A DNA stretch of 64,000 nt, taken from an uncultured Gemmatimonadota bacterium. Lineage in GTDB: Bacteria; ARS69. A program made the position numbers and the translations under genes. Numbering within the stretch: position 1 is the first letter of the stretch; every line of letters starts with the position of its first letter. A model generated the notes under the pieces. That model did no database searches. It had not been told where the DNA came from and worked only from the letters and a program-made list of their open reading frames with translations. Positions 8,494 to 26,716 of this stretch are shown here, in pieces. The stretch covers positions 4,601 through 68,600 of the forward strand of contig CAZNDO010000016.1 of the NCBI GenBank assembly GCA_964571855.1, given 5' to 3'.

Positions 8494-9318
8494 TCAGCCC
8501 GCCGCGTGGAACGCCGCGATCCGGTCCCACGCCTCGCGCGCCGTCTCCGCCCAGTGGAACAGCTCCAGGTCCGACGGGGAGATCATCCCCTCCTCCGCGA
8601 GCACGTCGAACCGGACCGCGCGCTCCCAGAATTCGCGCCCGAAGAGGATGACCGGGATGCGCTGCACCTTGCCGGTCTGGATGAGCGTGAGCGCCTCGAA
8701 CAGCTCGTCGCACGTGCCGAAGCCGCCGGGGAAGGCCACCAGCGCCTTCGCCCGCATGAGGAAGTGCATCTTGCGGATCGCGAAGTAGCGGAACTGGAAG
8801 CACAGCTCCGACGTGATGTAGGGGTTCGGGGCCTGCTCGTGCGGGAGCACGATGTTGAGCCCCACGCTCTTCGCGGCCGCGTCGTGCGCGCCGCGGTTCG
8901 CCGCCTCCATGATGCCGGGGCCGCCGCCGGTCACGATGACGTACTCGCAGCGCCCCTCCACCTGGCACGTGGTGGACACGATGCGGCTCAGCTCGCGCGC
9001 CTCGTCGTAGTAGCGCGCGTTGTGCGCGGCGCGGCGCGCCCGGTCCCGGCGCGCGGCCGCCGCGGGGTCGTCCGGCCGCCGCGCGGCGTCCGCCTCCGCC
9101 GCCGCGAGCTCCGCGCGCGCGACCGCCGGCTCCGGGATCCGCGCGCTCCCGAACACCACGATCGTGGACGCGATCCCGTGCTCGCGCTGCACGAGGTCCG
9201 GCTTCTCGAACTCCAGGAGCAGGCGCACGCCGCGCAGTTCGTCGCGGTTCAGGAAGGCGTGGTCCTCGTACGCCTTGACGTAGGAAGGCGAGTCGAGGAG
9301 CGGGTTGCCGGTGGCCAT
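8494..9318 (-). CDS. LOG family protein (TIGR00730 Rossmann fold; cytokinin riboside 5'-monophosphate phosphoribohydrolase-like), long form.
   Basis: Motifs VTGGGPGIMEAANRGA and PGGFGTCDELFEALTLIQTGK, with an N-terminal extension of about 110 aa. Confidence 0.8.
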   Translation of the reverse strand: MATGNPLLDSPSYVKAYEDHAFLNRDELRGVRLLLEFEKPDLVQREHGIASTIVVFGSARIPEPAVARAELAAAEADAARRPDDPAAAARRDRARRAAHNARYYDEARELSRIVSTTCQVEGRCEYVIVTGGGPGIMEAANRGAHDAAAKSVGLNIVLPHEQAPNPYITSELCFQFRYFAIRKMHFLMRAKALVAFPGGFGTCDELFEALTLIQTGKVQRIPVILFGREFWERAVRFDVLAEEGMISPSDLELFHWAETAREAWDRIAAFHAAG

Positions 9319-9479
9319 GGATCCTCCGTGCGAACGGGGCAGCGGTCGTTCGACTTCCGGGACGCGACACTAGCGCGGGGAGGCCGCCCGCTCAATGCGC
9401 CGGCTCCGGCGGCCGTGCTAGAGTCTCGCGCCCCCGGACCGCCGGAAGGCGGCGGCCGGTCTCCCGCACGGAGGCCCCC

Positions 9480-9983
9480 TTGATCAAGATCCCGCAGCCC
9501 GCCATGGCGCTGAACGCCGACGACGTGCCCGGTCCCGACTACAAGATGTGGAACACGCGCAAGGTCACGCGCAAGGACGACGCGCGCTGGCTCATGAAGA
9601 ACGTGGCGTCGGTGGCGCGCTCCACCTCCACCGGCCGCCTCAAGGCGCTCGTGATCAACTGCCATGCCTCGGCCGCCAGCCTCGGGCTCGGCACGGGCAT
9701 CAGCCGCGGCAACACCGAGGTCTTCGACGAGCTCAAGGGACTGGTGGACGAGATCTACATCGTGGCGTGCCAGGTGGCGTACATCAACGGCCCGGGCACC
9801 GGCACGGACGGGAACCTGTTCACGTGCGCCGTCGCGAAGAACTCGGGCGCGAGCGTGTACGCGTCCACCGCGTCGCAGAACACGGGGATCTGGCCGGCGA
9901 TCCCGTTCGGCTACATCGACGGGTTCGAGGGCAAGGTCTACAAGTACAAGCCCGACGGCTCCGTGGAGCTCACCGGCCTTTGA
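9480..9983 (+). CDS. Hypothetical cytoplasmic protein (167 aa) with His/Cys motifs after hydrophobic strands.
   Basis: TTG start with GGAGG 7 nt upstream. No signal peptide. Motifs LKALVINCHAS and IYIVACQVAY. Confidence 0.5.
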   Translation: MIKIPQPAMALNADDVPGPDYKMWNTRKVTRKDDARWLMKNVASVARSTSTGRLKALVINCHASAASLGLGTGISRGNTEVFDELKGLVDEIYIVACQVAYINGPGTGTDGNLFTCAVAKNSGASVYASTASQNTGIWPAIPFGYIDGFEGKVYKYKPDGSVELTGL

Positions 9984-12900
9984 CGCTCCGCCGGTACGAC
10001 CTCGCGTGCACCGTGGATCCGTACCGCGACGGCTGGACCCTGCACGACTTCCTGGTGCACCGGTTCCGGTACCATCCGGAGCCGCTGTGGTCGACGCGTC
10101 TCGCCGAGGGGGCCGTGCTCGTGAACGGCGAGACGGCCGACGGGGCACGCGTCGTGCATGCCGGCGACCGGATCGACTACCACGTGTGGCACGAGGAACC
10201 GCCGGTCGACTTCTCGTACGCCGTGCTGCACGAGGACGACGCCGTGCTGGCGGTGGCCAAGTCCGGCAACCTCCCGGTGCACGCCGGCGGGAAGTACATC
10301 CGGCACACGCTGATCGCGGAGCTCCGTGAGCGTTGGGGGAGCGAGCTGCGCCTCTCGCACCGGCTGGATCGGGAGACGTCGGGGGTCGTGGTGCTCGCGA
10401 AAACGCGCGCCGCGGCCCGCGCCCTGGAGCGGGAGTTCCACGGGCGTCGCGTGGCCAAGACGTACCTGGCGCTGCTCCGCGGCGCCGTGCCGGCGGAGGT
10501 GACGGTGGACGCCCCGATCGGCCGGGAGGATCCGTCGGGCGTGTCCTCCTTCCGGTGTGTCGATCCGGAGCACGGCAAGCCGGCGCGGACCCGGTTCGTG
10601 CCGGTCGCGTCCGGCCCGGGGCCCGCCGCCCCGGCCGCCACGCCGCGCCCGGCCACGCTCGTCCTCGTCATGCCCGAGTCCGGGCGGACCAACCAGATCC
10701 GGGTCCACGCCGCGCACCTGGGCCGTCCGGTCGTCGGGGACAAGATCTACGGCGTCCCGCGTGCGCTCACGGAGCGCTTCGTCACGGCGGGGGAGACGGC
10801 GGAGATCCTGGCCGCCGCCGGTGCGCCGCGCCACCTGCTGCACTGCCTCCGGCTGGCCCTGCGCCACCCGGACGGGCGCCTCCTCGAGCTCACGGCCCCG
10901 CCGCCGCCGGATTTCGCCGATTCCTGGGGAGGCCCCCTGCCCGACTTCGGGGTATCTTTGCCCCGAATAGGCCTTCAAACCCCGCGGGAGCCCCCTCCCG
11001 GTCCACCTCGTCCCGAGGAACTCGCCGTGAAGACGCTGGAGCGGATCGACCCCCGCACCCTGATCGAGGAGATGAGGGCGCAGCACGCGCACTGGGAGAA
11101 GATCAAGGACCTGATCGACTCCATGATCGACATGATGCTGAACTACCGGCAGAGCGGGCACCCCGGCGGTTCCCGCTCCAAGGTCCACCTCCTGGTGACC
11201 ACCCTCCTGGGCGGCATCATGCGCTGGGACATCCGCCACCCGGAGAAGCCCTTCGGCGACCGCTTCATCCTCGTGGCCGGGCACACGGTGCCGCTGGTGT
11301 ACGCCACGCTCACCGTGTTCTGCCACGCCCTGCGGCTCAAGTACGCGAAGACCGGGGATCCGAAGTACCTCATCCCCGATCCCGAGCACCGCTCCATGAT
11401 GTGGGAGGACCTGCTGCGGCTCCGCCGCAACAAGGGGCTCGCGGGCCACGCGGAGATGGAGGGGAAGACCCTCTTCTTCAAGTTCAACACGGGGCCGTCC
11501 GGGCACGGCTCGCCGGCGGCGGCGGGCGAGGCCATGGCGCTCAAGCGCGCGGGCGCGGCCGACGTGCGCGTGTTCGCGTTCGAGGGCGAGGGCGGGCTCA
11601 CCACGGGCGCGTCGCACGAGACACGCAACACGGCGTGGGGGCTGGGTCTCTCGAATCTCGTGTACGTGGTGGACTGGAACGACGAGGGCATCGACCCGCG
11701 CCGCTGCTCCAGCGTGGTGTACGGCGGGCCGCAGGACTGGTTCGGCGCGGCGGGCTGGAAGGTGGTCGGCGCGCAGAGCGGGAGCGACTGGGAGGACGTC
11801 TCGCGCGCGCTCGCCGAGGGCGTGCACGGCGCGAACCCGCTGGCGACGCCGGTGTGCGTGTGGGGCCGCACGCTGAAGGGCCGCGGCTACGCGGTGACCG
11901 GCTACAAGTCGCACGGCACCCCGCTGCCGACGAACAGCGAGGGCTACTGGAAGGGCCGGCAGGAGTTCACCGACAAGCACGGGATCGCGTTCGAGGGGCA
12001 GGGGCAGCCGGCGCCGGCGGATCCGGCGGCGCTGAAGGCGCAGGTGGCCGAGAACCTGCAGCGCGCGCTCTCGCTCTTCGAGAAGGATCCCGCGCTGCTG
12101 GACTACCTGGCGGACCGGCTCGTGGAGCTCGGGGAGTCCGTGCCGGAGCGCGCGGAGGGCGCCGCCTTCGACACGGAGCGGACGCCGTTCAAGGACCCCG
12201 CGTTCTGGGACTTCCGCGCGTACCCGGAGTCGATGTGGGCGAAGCCGGGGGACAAGAAGCCGAACCGCGCCGGACTCTCCGAGTGGGCGGCGTACGTGAA
12301 CTCGCTCGGCCGGAAGAAGTACGGCCGGCCGCTCTTCCTCGCGATGGCGGCGGACCTGGCGGACTCCACGAACATCTCGGGGTTCGCGAAGGGCTTCGGG
12401 GACATGGAAGGCTGGGGCTGGTACGAGCGGGCCACGAACCCGGACGGCGCGCTCCTGCCGCAGCAGATCACCGAGTTCGCCAACTCGGGCGTCACCGTGG
12501 GCCTGGCCTGCGTGAACCTGCACCCGAGACCCTACGAGGAATTCAACGGGTTCTACGGCGCGTGCTCCACCTACGGCTCGTTCAGCTACCTGAAGTACGG
12601 CCCCATGCGGCTGTTCAGCCAGGTGGCGCAGGACTCGGAGATCCGCGTGGGCAAGGTGCTGTGGATCGCCGGGCACTCCGGGCCGGAGACGGCGGAGGAC
12701 TCCCGGACGCACTTCGGCATCTTCGCGCCGGGCGTGACGGATCTCTTCCCGGAGGGTCACGTGTGCAACGTGCACCCGTGGGAGCACAACGAGGTGCCGG
12801 TCGTGCTGGGCGCGGCGTTCGCGTCGGACTTCCCGATCGTGGCGCTGCACCTCACGCGGCCCGCCGTGACGATCCCGGATCGCGCCGCGCTCGGGATGGC

Positions 12901-13379
12901 GTCGCACTTCGACGCGGCGAAGGGCGCGTACCTCATCCGGGATTTCGATCCCGCGCGGCCGCCGGCCGGCACCGTGCTGGTGCAGGGCACGATGTCCACG
13001 GTGAACCTCGTGAAGACGCTGCCGGAGATCGCGAAGGCGGGGCTGAACGTCCGCATCGTGGCGGCCATCAGCCCGCAGCTCTTCGCGAAGCAGCCGCGCG
13101 AGTACCGCGACCGCATCCTGCCGGCGTCCGCGCAGCTGGACTGCATGATGGTGTCCAACCGGTCGCGGCGGCTCATGTGGGATTGGCTCCGCAACCCGGC
13201 GACGGACGAATACGCGCTCACGTCCGACTGGGACGACCGGTGGCGCACCGGCGGCTCGGTGGACGAGGTCATGGCCGAGGCGCGGCTGTCCCCGGCGGAC
13301 ATCCTGGCCGGCATCGAGCGGTTCGTGCGCGAGCGCCCCGCACGCATCGCGCGCGCGCGGGCGGCGCTGGACGCGCTGG

Positions 13380-13387
<8 letters not shown>
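9980..13387 (+). CDS. Continuous reading frame: an RluA-family pseudouridine synthase (S4-like plus catalytic domain, about 9980-10900) runs without a stop into a transketolase-family thiamine-diphosphate protein (probable internal GTG start at 11027 with GAGGAA RBS).
   Basis: The pseudouridine synthase part has S4-like RYDLACTV..AVLVNGE, motif LSHRLDRETSGVVVLAKT (catalytic Asp), and C-terminal ..HCLRLALRHPDGRLLELTAPPPPDF. The transketolase part has the TPP motif NYRQSGHPGGSRS, GHTVPLVYATL, and FAFEGEGGLTTGASHETRNTAWGLGLSNLVYVVDWND. The pyrimidine-binding half continues to the stop at 13385-13387. There is no in-frame stop anywhere between the two parts (track ORF 9548..13387). Confidence 0.65.
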
Positions 13388-15733
<2,346 letters not shown>

Positions 15734-15839
15734 CGCGCGCGCCGCGCCCGGAACGCGGAAGGGGTCCCGCCGCGGCGGGACCCCTTCGCGTTTCTCCGGA
15801 GCTTGCGCGGGACCGCACCCGCTCGCGGCGCCGGAACGG

Positions 15840-16571
15840 CTAGCGGTAGAGCGCCTTGACCGCGCCCCACGTGTTCTGCTCGACCGAGACGGCGCAGGAC
15901 ACGTCCGCATCGATCAGCAGCTGCGCGTCGCACACGCCGTCGTTGAAGGAGGAGCCGGGGCACAGCGGAGCGGACGTCGTGCCGTAGTCGAAGCTGTGGT
16001 TCGCGCGATCGATCGGGTAGCAGGTGCCGCAGGCCGGGGCCTCCGCACCCACGCCCGCCGGGTGGTCGGACGCCACCGCGGCCGGGTTCGACGCGCCCGC
16101 ACCGAACGTGACCGCCACGGCGAACGTGCGGTCGGGGACCGGGATGCCGCCGAAGTCGGTGCTGTTCCAGCCCGTCACCGGCAGGAACGCCTGCGAGGCG
16201 ATCGCCGCGCCGGTGGGGCACTGCGACGCGTCCGCGTCGAACACGTCGATCGTGCCGGTGAAGGAGTAGCCGGACGGCGCGCCGGTGTAGAAGTAGGACC
16301 ACACCGCGCCCACGCCGGTGGTGTAGCCGATCGTGCAGCAGCTGGTGAACGAGACGCCGAACTGCGCGCTGGGCGCGAACCCGCTCCAGATCCAGATCCA
16401 GCCGGTGCAGATGTTGTAGTACTGCAGTGTGCACGAGGACGAGCCGCGCCAGATGTCGGCGCGGTCCGTGTCGGAGAGTCTCTGGCTCGACTTCTCGAGC
16501 GCGAACGCGGGTGACGCGAGCAGCGTGGCGACGAACGTCGCCGCGAGGAGAATTCGAAGCGAAGACTTCAT
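15840..16571 (-). CDS. Secreted cysteine-rich hypothetical protein (243 aa, 12 Cys).
   Basis: GGAGG RBS, then the ATG. Signal peptide MKSSLRILLAATFVATLLASPAFA. Mature region has Cys pairs plus WIWIW, and ends ...AVKALYR. The upstream part of track ORF 15840..17240 is discarded. Confidence 0.55.
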   Translation of the reverse strand: MKSSLRILLAATFVATLLASPAFALEKSSQRLSDTDRADIWRGSSSCTLQYYNICTGWIWIWSGFAPSAQFGVSFTSCCTIGYTTGVGAVWSYFYTGAPSGYSFTGTIDVFDADASQCPTGAAIASQAFLPVTGWNSTDFGGIPVPDRTFAVAVTFGAGASNPAAVASDHPAGVGAEAPACGTCYPIDRANHSFDYGTTSAPLCPGSSFNDGVCDAQLLIDADVSCAVSVEQNTWGAVKALYR

Positions 16572-17049
16572 GACCGAACCTCCATGTCCGGAGCGGGAAG
16601 GTCCGGCGGGTCCGGCCGCCCTGGAGGCGGAGCGCGGGCACGCGCGGAGCGGTTCCTTCCTCATCGACCGAATCTCGCACCGGCTTGACGATTCCGGAAG
16701 GGCCGGGGGACGACAAATGTGCAAGAAGCGCGAAATCAAGCGGTTGGCCGGGGCGGCGGCGGGCCCCGAGGGACCGGGAACGGTGCAACCGCTTCGCGGG
16801 GGGCGTTCGGGGGCGGCCAGGCCGGAGGGCAATGCCCCCCGGTTGGTTGCCGGCGAGCTTCCGACGACTCGCGAACCGCGCGACGCGGTTCCGCCCGGTG
16901 GGGCGGTTTCGCGCGCGGCTCGACGCTTCGCGAGTTCACCGCGCGCACGCGCGGCGCCGTTCGTGCGACACGCGCGGCGCGAGTGCATCGCCGGCGTGGT
17001 GCGCACACACCGGCGCACGCCGCGGTCGCTTGACGCTTCGGCATCCGTT

Positions 17050-17079
17050 TCCCTATCATGGGTTCGTCGGCGTGAGCCG
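17050..17079 (+). promoter_or_regulatory. Sigma-70-like promoter candidate: TTGACG, an 18-nt spacer, then TATCAT.
   Basis: Both hexamers are close to consensus and sit in a locally lower-GC gene-free stretch. A second GCTTGACG(A/C)TTC copy lies about 345 nt upstream, near 16683. Confidence 0.3.
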
Positions 17080-17086
17080 ACGACGG

Positions 17087-17312
17087 GAATCGGGCCCTGC
17101 AGTGCACGACGTGGGTCGCGATAAAATTGAACCGAATGACTCGCCCAAGGGAGCTCTACATCCGGTTGGGACGTCCACGGCCTTCGCGGCATGAGGACTG
17201 AACGGACCGTGCGAGCACCCACTTGGAGTCCACGGGTCAAGCGTCGCGGCTCCGGACGTCACGGCGGGGCACCGATCCCGAAAGGGCGCGCTCTGCGCGC
17301 CCTTTCTCCGTT
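17087..17312 (+). ncRNA. Candidate small RNA, or a structured leader of the downstream hydrolase (about 225 nt), bounded by the promoter above and a perfect palindromic terminator.
   Basis: Locally reduced GC (gggtcgcgataaaattgaaccgaatgactcgcc). No credible ORF. It ends in the hairpin AAAGGGCGCGC-tct-GCGCGCCCTTT, followed by tctccgtt. Confidence 0.25.
17281..17305 (+). terminator. Perfect 11-bp palindromic hairpin with a 3-nt loop, followed by a T-containing tail.
   Basis: AAAGGGCGCGC tct GCGCGCCCTTT ctccgttcc. It sits 15 nt upstream of the preferred hydrolase start. Confidence 0.45.
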
Positions 17313-17321
17313 CCGGGCGTC

Positions 17322-18101
17322 GTGCTGAACGCGGGCGCGCACGCGCGAGTCGCCGCATGGCGCGAGGCGGAGGCCCGGGACGGCGTGCCCGAGACGGTGC
17401 GATCGTTCGTGCGCGATGCGGCGTCGCCGCGGGGCAGCGCGCTCCTCTTGCACGGCGCCGGCGGCTCGCCCGCGGACTTCCACTTCCTGGCCACGGATCT
17501 CGCCCGGCACGGCATCTCGTCCGTGTGTCCGCTGCTTCCCGGGCACGGGCGGGGGGACGCGGGCCTCGCCGCGCTCCGCTTCGACCCGCTCGCGCGTCGC
17601 GCCCTCGAGGCGTACGACGCGCTCGCGGCGGCCGACCCCGCGCCCAAGCCGTATCTCGTGGGGCAGTCCGTGGGCGCGGTGCTCGGCGCGCACGTCGCCG
17701 CGGAGCGGGCGCCCGCCGGTCTCGTCGCGCTGGCCCCCGCGCTGCGGCCCTACGTGCTGCGCCGCCTGGGCATGCTGCTGCTGGGGTTCCTCGTCCGGCC
17801 GCGCGTCGCCCTGCACACGCTGCGCTGGCAGACCGACGTGCGCCGCGGCATCCGCGCCACCGCGGCTCGCCTCGGCGAGGTGCGTTGCCCCCTGCTCGTT
17901 CTCCACTCGCGCGACGACGACAGCGTCTCGGCGCGCGGGGCGCGCGAACTCCTGGAGGCCGCGGCGTCGGAGCGCAAGGAACTGCGGTGGCTGGACGGGC
18001 AGGGACACGTGCTGTCCACCGCGCCGGACCGGGAGCGGGTGTTCGGACCCGTGCGCGAGTTCCTCGCCGCGTCTACTGAGGCAGGTCGAAGCGGAACGTA
18101 G
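17322..18101 (+). CDS. Alpha/beta hydrolase (esterase/lipase-type serine hydrolase).
   Basis: Motifs LLLHGAGGSPADF and the nucleophile elbow GQSVG. C-terminal LVLHSRDDDSV and GQGHV (Asp/His). The start is uncertain (GTG at 17322 or 17385). The track start at 17223 would include the hairpin. Confidence 0.7.
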   Translation: MLNAGAHARVAAWREAEARDGVPETVRSFVRDAASPRGSALLLHGAGGSPADFHFLATDLARHGISSVCPLLPGHGRGDAGLAALRFDPLARRALEAYDALAAADPAPKPYLVGQSVGAVLGAHVAAERAPAGLVALAPALRPYVLRRLGMLLLGFLVRPRVALHTLRWQTDVRRGIRATAARLGEVRCPLLVLHSRDDDSVSARGARELLEAAASERKELRWLDGQGHVLSTAPDRERVFGPVREFLAASTEAGRSGT

Positions 18102-26642: not shown

Positions 26643-26716
26643 TAGCGGTGCAGGGATTCGAACCCCGGACACGCGGATTATGATTCCGCTGCTCTAACCA
26701 ACTGAGCTACACCGCC
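26643..26716 (-). tRNA. tRNA with anticodon CAU (elongator Met or lysidine-modified Ile2). It is not the initiator.
   Basis: Cloverleaf GGCGGTG-TA-GCTC-AGTTGGTTA-GAGC-A-GCGGA-aTCATAa-TCCGC-GTGTC-CGGGG-TTCGAAT-CCCTG-CACCGCTA. CCA is not encoded. It lacks the three G-C pairs of the initiator anticodon stem. It lies about 140 nt from the tilS start. Confidence 0.8.

Follow-up and report, generated by a model that had tools for sequence, protein, structure and literature searches.

Does an uninterrupted reading frame carrying both an RluA-type pseudouridine synthase and a transketolase-family protein specify a bifunctional enzyme, or two ordinary genes that have run together? The question arises in a 64,000-nt stretch of DNA from an uncultured Gemmatimonadota bacterium (the window), where a stop-free frame on the forward strand extends from TTG 9980 to TGA 13385–13387 (1135 codons; the mechanical ORF around the fusion is 9548..13387). 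In order, the frame specifies the synthase, a 43-codon Pro-rich tail and a 786-aa transketolase-family protein, and it contains two Pfam domains (PseudoU_synth_2, E=1.4e-25; Transketolase_N, E=8.7e-16). A preliminary description, made from sequence alone, had noted the shared frame, the Pro-rich segment that follows the synthase without a stop, and a GTG and GAGGAA ribosome-binding site belonging to the transketolase itself, all of which are present: after the RluA end (...LRHPDGRLLELTAPPPPDF) come 37 residues, ADSWGGPLPDFGVSLPRIGLQTPREPPPGPPRPEELA, then GTG 11027, and the residues spanning the junction read ...GVSLPRIGLQTPREPPPGPPRPEELAVK.... It left three readings, namely a genuine RNA-modification/TPP-enzyme fusion, a mutated stop or an assembly error. 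Our analysis strongly favours the second, a read-through ORF arising from loss of the rluA stop through one substitution (TGA to CGA) in one strain of a Gemmatimonadota-like bacterium. Close relatives keep two genes, and we therefore regard the fusion as accidental and recent, not as a bifunctional enzyme by design.

An open frame by itself is weak evidence in this window. The G+C content is 73%, six stretches of 3 kb or more are free of stops, and two more frames are open over the fusion region (+ strand, 10333..13737; − strand, 9938..13789). The fusion is more than chance because it joins two segments with coding signatures (GC3 0.944 and 0.972), each homologous to stand-alone proteins, and because they join exactly at the TGA site of the closest relatives. 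The surroundings are compact (Table 1). The TGA of a conserved 167-aa ORF, which has no Pfam match to a known family, overlaps the TTG start of rluA (TTGA); in relatives a gene of 167–169 aa is called here, with the same 4-nt overlap onto rluA. The order of the co-oriented cluster (167-aa ORF, rluA, transketolase gene, pcm and guaB) is conserved in the Gemmatimonadota-like clade. Rfam gave nothing at the junction (best E=1.1, scores far under gathering thresholds) and one tRNA only over the whole window.

Table 1 Features of the fused frame and its neighbours (window coordinates).
Feature	Coordinates	Strand	Remarks
Conserved 167-aa ORF	9480..9983	+	First gene of the co-oriented cluster; GC3 0.97
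RluA-family pseudouridine synthase core	9980..10897	+	306 codons; PF00849; GC3 0.944
Pro-rich RluA tail plus former spacer	10898..11026	+	43 codons; present 'linker' of the fused frame
TATCTT, −10-like box	10953..10958	+	Part of the conserved GGTATCTT motif; 74 nt before the start of the transketolase gene
CGA (Arg), proposed fusing change T to C at 10964	10964..10966	+	TGA in L001 and L021–L025
Former spacer, 60 nt	10967..11026	+	In frame with both genes, stop-free; non-coding in closest relatives
GAGGAA, Shine–Dalgarno-like	11015..11020	+	6 nt upstream of GTG 11027
Long-form transketolase-family gene	11027..13387	+	786 aa; GTG start; GC3 0.972
pcm, protein-L-isoaspartate O-methyltransferase	13389..14174	+	PF01135, E=1.2e-61; context, outside the fusion

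The amino-terminal part matches PF00849 with 90.8 bits (cut-off 26.8) over profile positions 2–152 of 152. Its HRLDRETSG motif (RluA residues 127–135) contains an aspartate, encoded by GAT at 10367–10369, which we take to be the catalytic residue of the family. TIGR00005 scores just under its cut-off (178.6 against 192.7 bits), and the RluA, RluC, RluD and TruC equivalogs reach 80–93 bits against cut-offs of 286–378. On these profile scores, membership of the RluA family stands, whereas assignment to a specific orthologue does not. The usual carboxy-terminal ending of RluC/RluD-like synthases (...HP.G....L.AP.P.DF) is also present in the window protein; unlike RluA-family pseudouridine synthases, however, the window rluA lacks a stop codon of its own.

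The transketolase part is more divergent. Its N-terminus had been called canonical, and the SGHPGGS motif is indeed there (residues 43–49), but the word is too strong for a member of a divergent long-form clade: the best NCBIfam transketolase score is 110.5 bits against a cut-off of 488 (NF004559), and TIGR00232 gives 85.9 bits against 682. These values lie below the equivalog cut-offs; the protein belongs to the transketolase superfamily and fold, and transketolase activity is a putative function. The domain search proposed in the preliminary description placed the product in the transketolase superfamily, with other TPP families far under their cut-offs (dxs, E=0.0047, 15.5 bits versus 466; aceE, 15.2 bits versus 860) and the XFP domain of phosphoketolases absent from a Pfam scan of the frame. 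Homologues of 782–790 aa span 97–100% of the query from GTG 11027, and gene calls in relatives begin at the equivalent start. As had been remarked, the protein is longer than canonical transketolases (786 aa versus 616–711 aa for those solved). This extra length characterises a large clade of long-form proteins (about 786 aa, with GEG replacing GDG), whose thousands of members, at 60–88% identity, occur in Gemmatimonadota, Chloroflexota, Eisenbacteria and others; we found no characterised member with the methods used. The closest PDB sequence match has E=4e-18, so none of the solved structures is closely related in sequence. Literature on transketolase in Gemmatimonadetes returned general metagenomics papers only.

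An AF2 model of this part (pLDDT 85.4, pTM 0.89) has the three-domain PP/Pyr/C-terminal fold shared with canonical transketolase (E. coli TktA, yeast TKL1, EC 2.2.1.1; PDB 1qgd, 1trk, 3m49). All 50 best matches listed by Foldseek in the PDB are transketolases (E down to 1.5e-29, alignments of ~770 columns, TM 0.75–0.80 normalised to target). The motifs SGHPG, GH, GH.E, TGP.G.G, D.N..ID, HG.P, ED..TH and L(T/S)R align with the canonical enzyme, yet identity is only 19–21%, and extra residues lie at the N-terminus, in an insertion at ~98–120, in the inter-domain linker and in a C-terminal helical extension. H45, H86, H141, H296, H550, H562 and R611 align with solved-transketolase motifs and do not vary among 29 family members; their equivalents in the E. 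coli enzyme are the active-site H26, H66, H100, H261, H461 and H473 and the substrate-phosphate ligand R520. The metal-binding GDG(X)25–30N motif aligns as G187-E188-G189 ... N218, with Asp replaced by a Glu that is nearly invariant in the long-form clade and that might still bind metal. E483 (ITEF), R414 and S447, invariant in the family, lie outside the stretches covered by PDB-chain sequence alignments; we regard E483 as a candidate for the cofactor-activating Glu of the Pyr domain, and R414 and S447 as candidates for R358/S385-type phosphate ligands. The clade might catalyse a reaction other than the classical transketolase one.

The fusion turns on a single codon. The orthologue comparison that the preliminary description had called for shows rluA ending with a stop, separate from the transketolase gene, in 17 of 17 relatives examined. 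The closest of these come from five sequencing runs other than the window's. Three from unrelated runs (L021, L022 and L023; 95.8–95.9% DNA identity to the window) carry TGA at the codon that reads CGA in the window, as do L024 and L025 within the part covered. Downstream of this TGA, L021–L023 carry an identical cacctcgtcccgaggaactcgccGTG in the same frame and a 60-nt stop-free spacer between the genes. The same TGA is found in L001, which is 91% identical to the window. In four more distant relatives (L013, L014, L020 and the contig of P0003), stop and start overlap as GTGA; the TGA of their rluA persists in the window at 11028–11030, inside its own GTGA. The rluA stop lies 10–183 nt upstream of the transketolase start in six other relatives and 1998 nt upstream in L005. 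At 10964–10966, more distant relatives have a sense codon (CAA in L013; GGA in L014 and L007).

Our first hypothesis was a different one, in which a 1-base insertion near 11010, seen against L001 and L013, had shifted rluA past the GTGA stop. The window spacer is one base longer than in these two (G11010, or one C of 11012–11014), and over 9412–14173 this is the sole indel between the window and L001. L021–L023 share the extra base yet keep two genes, so the fusing change is TGA to CGA at 10964, and the insertion hypothesis was dropped. Four substitutions crowd the spacer just beyond the lost stop (10969–10976, within 12 nt); stop loss does not account for them.

No fused homologue was found by protein search: the best 120 matches to the full 1135-aa query are all ≤811 aa, and among the best 150 of 1.84 billion cluster representatives there is no protein with both RluA and transketolase parts. 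A metagenome scan with a junction 20-mer returned two matches, both in unrelated genes.

The junction itself is reproducible. Gene calls give exactly the 1135-aa product on Logan contigs of ERR2586215 (two samples) and ERR2586217, as well as on an NCBI contig of 86 kb; the Logan contigs (6.4–7.5 kb), on which pcm is also called, are 100.000% identical to window 8901–16387 and 8901–15301. A look-up of the exact 786-aa product found none on record, because the source annotates the fused gene. The confirming runs have neighbouring accession numbers, and the NCBI contig possibly derives from the same samples, so that the junction is replicated across runs and assemblers, not across populations; a literature search for run ERR2586215 returned nothing. 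With separate per-run assemblies giving exactly the same junction, assembly error is an unlikely cause of the fused frame. It is very hard to credit, more generally, that sequencing or assembly has hidden a genomic TGA at 10964–10966 and with it two ordinary genes. In its favour, only one sequence type shows the fusion, every relative having a stop, and public protein sets contain run-ons that join this transketolase family to unrelated genes upstream, with visible frameshifts (such as P0155 and P0199). Against it, the change is a substitution among four nearby substitutions and not a homopolymer indel, and it recurs identically in two per-run Logan assemblies and the NCBI contig. Furthermore, ~45 other coding segments of the window terminate at stops in the normal way, which shows that indel errors are not widespread, and the sole indel relative to L001 is shared with L021–L023.

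Both parts are under purifying selection, with dN/dS of 0.145 for RluA (versus L001) and 0.068 for the transketolase. On the window branch, synonymous and nonsynonymous changes number 15:5 in RluA and 29:10 in the transketolase. We looked for relaxed selection on rluA after the fusion and saw none (15:5 on the window branch versus 17:7 on the L021 branch).

The linker, by contrast, lacks coding-type codon bias: its GC3 is 0.651, against 0.944 in rluA and 0.972 in the transketolase gene. Codons 1–22 correspond to the RluA tail of relatives, and the last 20 codons to the non-coding spacer of L021–L023. Signals for independent expression of the transketolase have been kept. Relatives carry GAAGGAA or GAGGAA at the site equivalent to the Shine–Dalgarno-like sequence, and the GGTATCTT motif, with its TATCTT box, precedes the transketolase start by 55–111 nt in nine relatives, even where the DNA is intergenic. 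TANNNT boxes also occur 54–61 nt upstream of three neighbouring gene starts. We propose the TATCTT box as a putative promoter of the transketolase gene; it has no recognisable −35, and a strict sigma-70 scan found no promoter at the junction. One weak terminator-like hairpin (10935–10952) is not above chance. We also considered TAnnTTTG as a Bacteroidetes-type general −7 promoter motif, but it occurs once in 64 kb, at the junction (0.6 expected), so it is not a general promoter type in the window. Given the unbiased linker and the TATCTT box, a stand-alone transketolase is probably still made, and RluA only as a chimera of ~125 kDa.

From these states we infer a history in four steps, their order taken from parsimony and the direction of change resting on a single step. 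The ancestor would have had an rluA stop TGA overlapping the transketolase GTG (GTGA). An earlier TGA would then have appeared 59 nt before the transketolase start, cutting RluA to 328 aa and leaving a non-coding spacer, which would have gained one base to become 60 nt, in frame and stop-free. Last, in the window lineage only, TGA would have become CGA (T to C at 10964). The reverse course is improbable: CGA would be ancestral to the group of window, L021 and L001, the extra spacer base would have fused the genes in the ancestor of window and L021, and CGA would have become TGA twice, once splitting the genes again in the L021 group and once, in parallel, in L001; the fusion would then be the older state. 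It draws on the frequency of CGA to TGA transitions at CpG sites, on the sense codons of distant relatives (CAA in L013; GGA in L014 and L007) and on the extra base common to the window and L021–L023. But it takes one step more than stop loss (GGA to CGA, insertion, two independent nonsense changes), and the distances fit the grouping ((window, L021 group), L001), with TGA in both L001 and the L021 group.

Could the fusion nonetheless have been selected as an enzyme joining RNA modification to central carbon metabolism? The frame is intact, both halves remain under purifying selection along the window branch, and the Pro-rich segment could act as a flexible linker. An N-terminal extension might also be tolerated: in the transketolase family the first 19 residues show little conservation, and model confidence at the N-terminus is low. 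We nevertheless consider selection of this kind highly improbable, and nothing indicates that the fusion was selected for joint function. The architecture appears in no other lineage, whether among relatives or in protein searches; the linker is former tail plus non-coding spacer; and the internal ribosome-binding site, start codon and promoter-like box are all retained. Distant family members have the transketolase gene in unrelated neighbourhoods, and such neighbours outside the Gemmatimonadota-like clade argue against a functional link with rluA. Of the three initial readings, the mutated stop is supported, the genuine conserved fusion is not, and assembly error is disfavoured.

Under stop loss, ribosomes translating rluA would meet no stop before that of the transketolase, and would yield a 1135-aa chimera of ~125 kDa (RluA, 43-residue Pro-rich linker, transketolase). 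As the transketolase gene keeps its Shine–Dalgarno sequence and GTG, and probably a promoter in the rluA tail, the 786-aa enzyme should stay the main product. There is a slim chance that the chimera is both made and active, in which case a newborn bifunctional protein would hold the sole copy of this RluA paralogue in the cell, attached to dimers of the long-form transketolase. It would then represent a natural, datable first step of fusion, the downstream domain also still being made alone, and if the chimera is merely expressed, the strain could serve to study how a cell tolerates a new fusion.

For annotation, the 1135-aa pipeline call is best treated as a strain-level stop-loss allele, and no family named 'bifunctional pseudouridine synthase/transketolase' should be spread from it. 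A lead of more lasting value is the clade of long-form transketolases with GEG for GDG, for which no NCBIfam model reaches its cut-off. Three other predicted proteins likewise carry a long-form transketolase as their C-terminal part, RluA being the partner in none. P0143 begins with an aminotransferase-like N-terminus and P0155 with a 2-hydroxyacid-dehydrogenase-like C-terminal fragment (labels from sequence reading, not domain scans), while P0199 has another partner; P0155 and P0199 contain obvious frameshifted stretches.

Multidomain proteins are well known to arise when neighbouring genes in the same orientation fuse through loss of a stop codon or through read-through. This locus illustrates neatly, on a small scale, that tightly packed genes of one orientation can lie a single mutation from fusion in a high-GC genome. 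It resembles stop-loss gene fusion in general in its co-oriented neighbours, its in-frame stop-free spacer and its single point mutation. The downstream gene retains its start signals, so both fused and free forms of the downstream product are expected. Unlike stop-loss fusions in general, the intermediates can here be read in relatives: a 4-nt overlap, an early stop, an in-frame spacer and, in the window, loss of the stop.

Within the fused frame, PseudoU_synth_2 (Pfam; residues 89–246, E=1.4e-25) is followed by Transketolase_N and by weaker matches to Transket_pyr and Transketolase_C_1. The RluA part ends in ...LRHPDGRLLELTAPPPPDF, 37 residues (ADSWGGPLPDFGVSLPRIGLQTPREPPPGPPRPEELA) separate this end from the GTG with its GAGGAA, and SGHPGGS occupies residues 43–49 of the transketolase part; sequence inspection and Pfam bear out all that the preliminary description said of frame, RluA end, start signals and motif. 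An open frame by itself is weak evidence here, because G+C makes up 73% of the window, six stretches of at least 3 kb lack stops, and two more frames stay open across the fused region. The noteworthy feature is the joining of two truly coding segments (GC3 0.944 for RluA, 0.972 for transketolase). Against L001, a relative with 91% DNA identity that is colinear across 9.9 kb, the RluA core has a dN/dS of 0.145 and transketolase one of 0.068. Synonymous to nonsynonymous counts on the window branch (outgroup L001) are 15:5 and 29:10, with similar counts on the sister branch, showing both halves to be under purifying selection. The 43-codon linker lacks coding-type bias, as judged by its GC3 of 0.651, and the closest relatives have non-coding DNA in place of its second half.

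Coordinates of the fused frame and other features discussed here
Feature	Position	Strand	Remark
Fused frame	TTG 9980 to TGA 13385–13387		Stop-free, 1,135 codons; upstream limit in mechanical ORF list, GTG 9548
Other open frames	10333..13737	+	
	9938..13789	-	
ORF 5' of rluA	9480–9983	+	L013 1446–1955; L021 358–861
GGTATCTT(TG) motif	10949–10960		
CGA replacing TGA	10964–10966		
Substitution cluster	10967–10976		
GAGGAA	11015–11020		
Transketolase GTG	11027		
FEGEGG	11579–11596		Transketolase residues 185–190
Surplus transketolase residues	N-terminus; insertion ~98–120; inter-domain linker; C-terminal helical extension		Four places
Intergenic region	16570–17350		~780 nt
tRNA gene, single	26643–26716	-	Nothing else in the window reaches an Rfam gathering threshold

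Whether the two genes stand apart in orthologues, a question raised at the outset, was answered by tblastn: in Gemmatimonadota-like relatives at ten genome loci, rluA lies immediately 5' of the transketolase gene, and its frame is stop-terminated in all. Gene calls at L013, L014, L020 and the contig of protein P0003 place the rluA end over the transketolase gene by 4 nt, as a GTGA stop/start. The best 120 matches of the 1,135-residue query in a 5.8-billion-protein collection are all of 811 residues or fewer, and HMMER, run over 1.84 billion cluster representatives, returned no RluA–transketolase protein among its best 150; longer matches there are chimeras with other partners, some with obvious frameshifted stretches. 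With a stop in every relative examined and a fused homologue among the best matches of neither search, the suggestion of a conserved bifunctional gene is not supported. In P0143 (1,203 aa, low-GC), ~400 N-terminal residues that resemble, by eye, a class I/II aminotransferase precede a distantly related long-form transketolase (36% identity); this may be a true fusion, in a different lineage. Four further proteins (P0155, P0199, P0154 and P0230) carry the long-form transketolase as a run-on from unrelated upstream genes, with frameshifted stretches such as GHPPPGEALRRPL, which matches the +1 frame of WDIRHPEK...; they illustrate the frequency with which run-on ORFs of high GC are annotated as chimeras.

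The preliminary description had also offered a mutated stop, and here the closest relatives agree. The 90% cluster of the fused product, reached by exact look-up, includes stand-alone 328-aa RluA and 786-aa transketolase proteins from other runs. Their contigs, L021–L025 (SRR32934021, ERR15459717, SRR19591708, SRR26685665 and SRR26685670), are 95.2–95.9% identical to the window. In L021–L023 a TGA and 60 stop-free nt separate the genes; the start-to-start distance is 1,047 nt, as in the window, so both genes already share one frame. With CGA in the window in place of this TGA, one T-to-C transition suffices for fusion. Four further substitutions relative to L021–L023 fall at 10969–10976. The resulting cluster (four substitutions in 8 nt, five in 13 nt with the stop-loss change, against 96%-identical relatives) is much denser than the 4% mean divergence and lies directly 3' of a putative -10 box. 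Across coding positions 9412–14173, the sole uncompensated indel relative to L001 and L013 is one extra window base near 11010. It was ruled out as the cause of fusion: L021–L023 share the base yet keep two genes. Deleting one base there would give back a ...PPRPRNSP end, then stop, at the GTGA overlap.

Distances favour the grouping ((window, L021 group), L001). By parsimony, rluA would originally have stopped at a GTGA overlap with the transketolase start; an early TGA would then have appeared in rluA, the spacer, by then non-coding, would have gained one base, and only in the window's lineage would TGA have become CGA. The reverse history, in which CGA is ancestral and was twice independently lost to nonsense mutation, needs one step more than stop loss and strikes us as unlikely. 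Less credible still, and very improbable, is an artefact such as the assembly error also offered at the outset. The exact 1,135-residue product is on record in Logan per-run assemblies ERR2586215 (contig in two samples) and ERR2586217 and on an 86-kb NCBI contig, and both Logan contigs, junction included, match the window (8901–16387 and 8901–15301) at 100.000% identity, although these runs probably come from one study. Moreover, the change is a substitution rather than a homopolymer indel, other real substitutions surround it, and normal stops end some 45 further coding segments of the window. We regard the 1,135-codon frame as, most probably, a read-through fusion, particular to this strain, of two ordinary genes, arising by a well-known mechanism. 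Both Logan contigs begin exactly at 8901, within a LOG-family gene, suggesting a repeat, coverage break or strain variation there.

The transketolase gene appears still to be independently expressed, since it retains GAGGAA-N6-GTG and a conserved upstream GGTATCTT motif. This motif has equivalents 55–111 nt 5' of the transketolase start in nine relatives (L001, L002, L003, L004, L007, L010, L013, L014 and L020), either within the rluA tail or, where rluA ends earlier, between the two genes. The motif is probably a promoter -10 box, with no -35 recognisable. The junction TAnnTTTG is the sole occurrence in 64 kb, and TANNNT boxes, rare in this genome, lie 54–61 nt 5' of the starts of the 167-aa ORF, guaB and the LOG-family gene. 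The main product would be a free 786-aa transketolase and the minor one a 1,135-aa chimera made by ribosomes translating rluA; barring linker cleavage, no free RluA would be expected. Rfam detected no RNA element at the junction. No functional tie between RluA and transketolase was found, and transketolase neighbours are unrelated outside the Gemmatimonadota-like clade.

Directly 5' of rluA is a conserved 167–169-aa ORF, overlapping the rluA start by 4 nt (TTGA stop/start). It matches no Pfam family and is clearly coding, given its GC3 of 0.97; its GC1 (0.55) is lower than that of its neighbours. The intergenic region at 16570–17350 differs from L001 by many indels; it contains promoter-like boxes (TTGACG-N19-TATCAT and TAAAAT), and gttcgtcggc gtga gccgacgac there makes up a strong hairpin. 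It has no Rfam match and may hold a leader or small RNA.

The transketolase part belongs to a very large family (4,718 of 8,000 scored candidates at E≤1e-10). Full-length members, nearly all of 770–811 aa, align from query residue 1; the GTG is therefore the usual family start and the extra length a family trait. The ~120 additional residues noticed earlier prove to be ~120–140, spread across four sites. The 60–88% identity between members from different phyla suggests a housekeeping enzyme under strong constraint. The active-site histidines, the ED..TH segment and the L-T-R arginine line up, with no variation among 29 members. The metal-binding GDG of TPP enzymes is replaced by GEG, whose Glu is nearly invariant across the long-form clade (29 members, several phyla).

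The fused frame is useful chiefly as an annotation warning and a tidy example of fusion birth, and the uncharacterised long-form transketolases are the more durable lead. Sequence and structure searches found no characterised member of this clade. The domain search proposed earlier left DXS, E1 and phosphoketolase models (Pfam, NCBIfam) unmatched, and transketolase is the most likely function of the product. An AF2 model (pLDDT 85.4, pTM 0.89) clearly predicts a transketolase fold: the 50 best Foldseek PDB matches listed are all transketolases (~770 aligned columns, target-normalised TM 0.75–0.80). With a top NCBIfam score of 110.5 bits (cut-off 488), a top PDB sequence match of E=4e-18 and 19–21% identity in structural alignments to PDB transketolases, the product is no close orthologue of the characterised enzymes.
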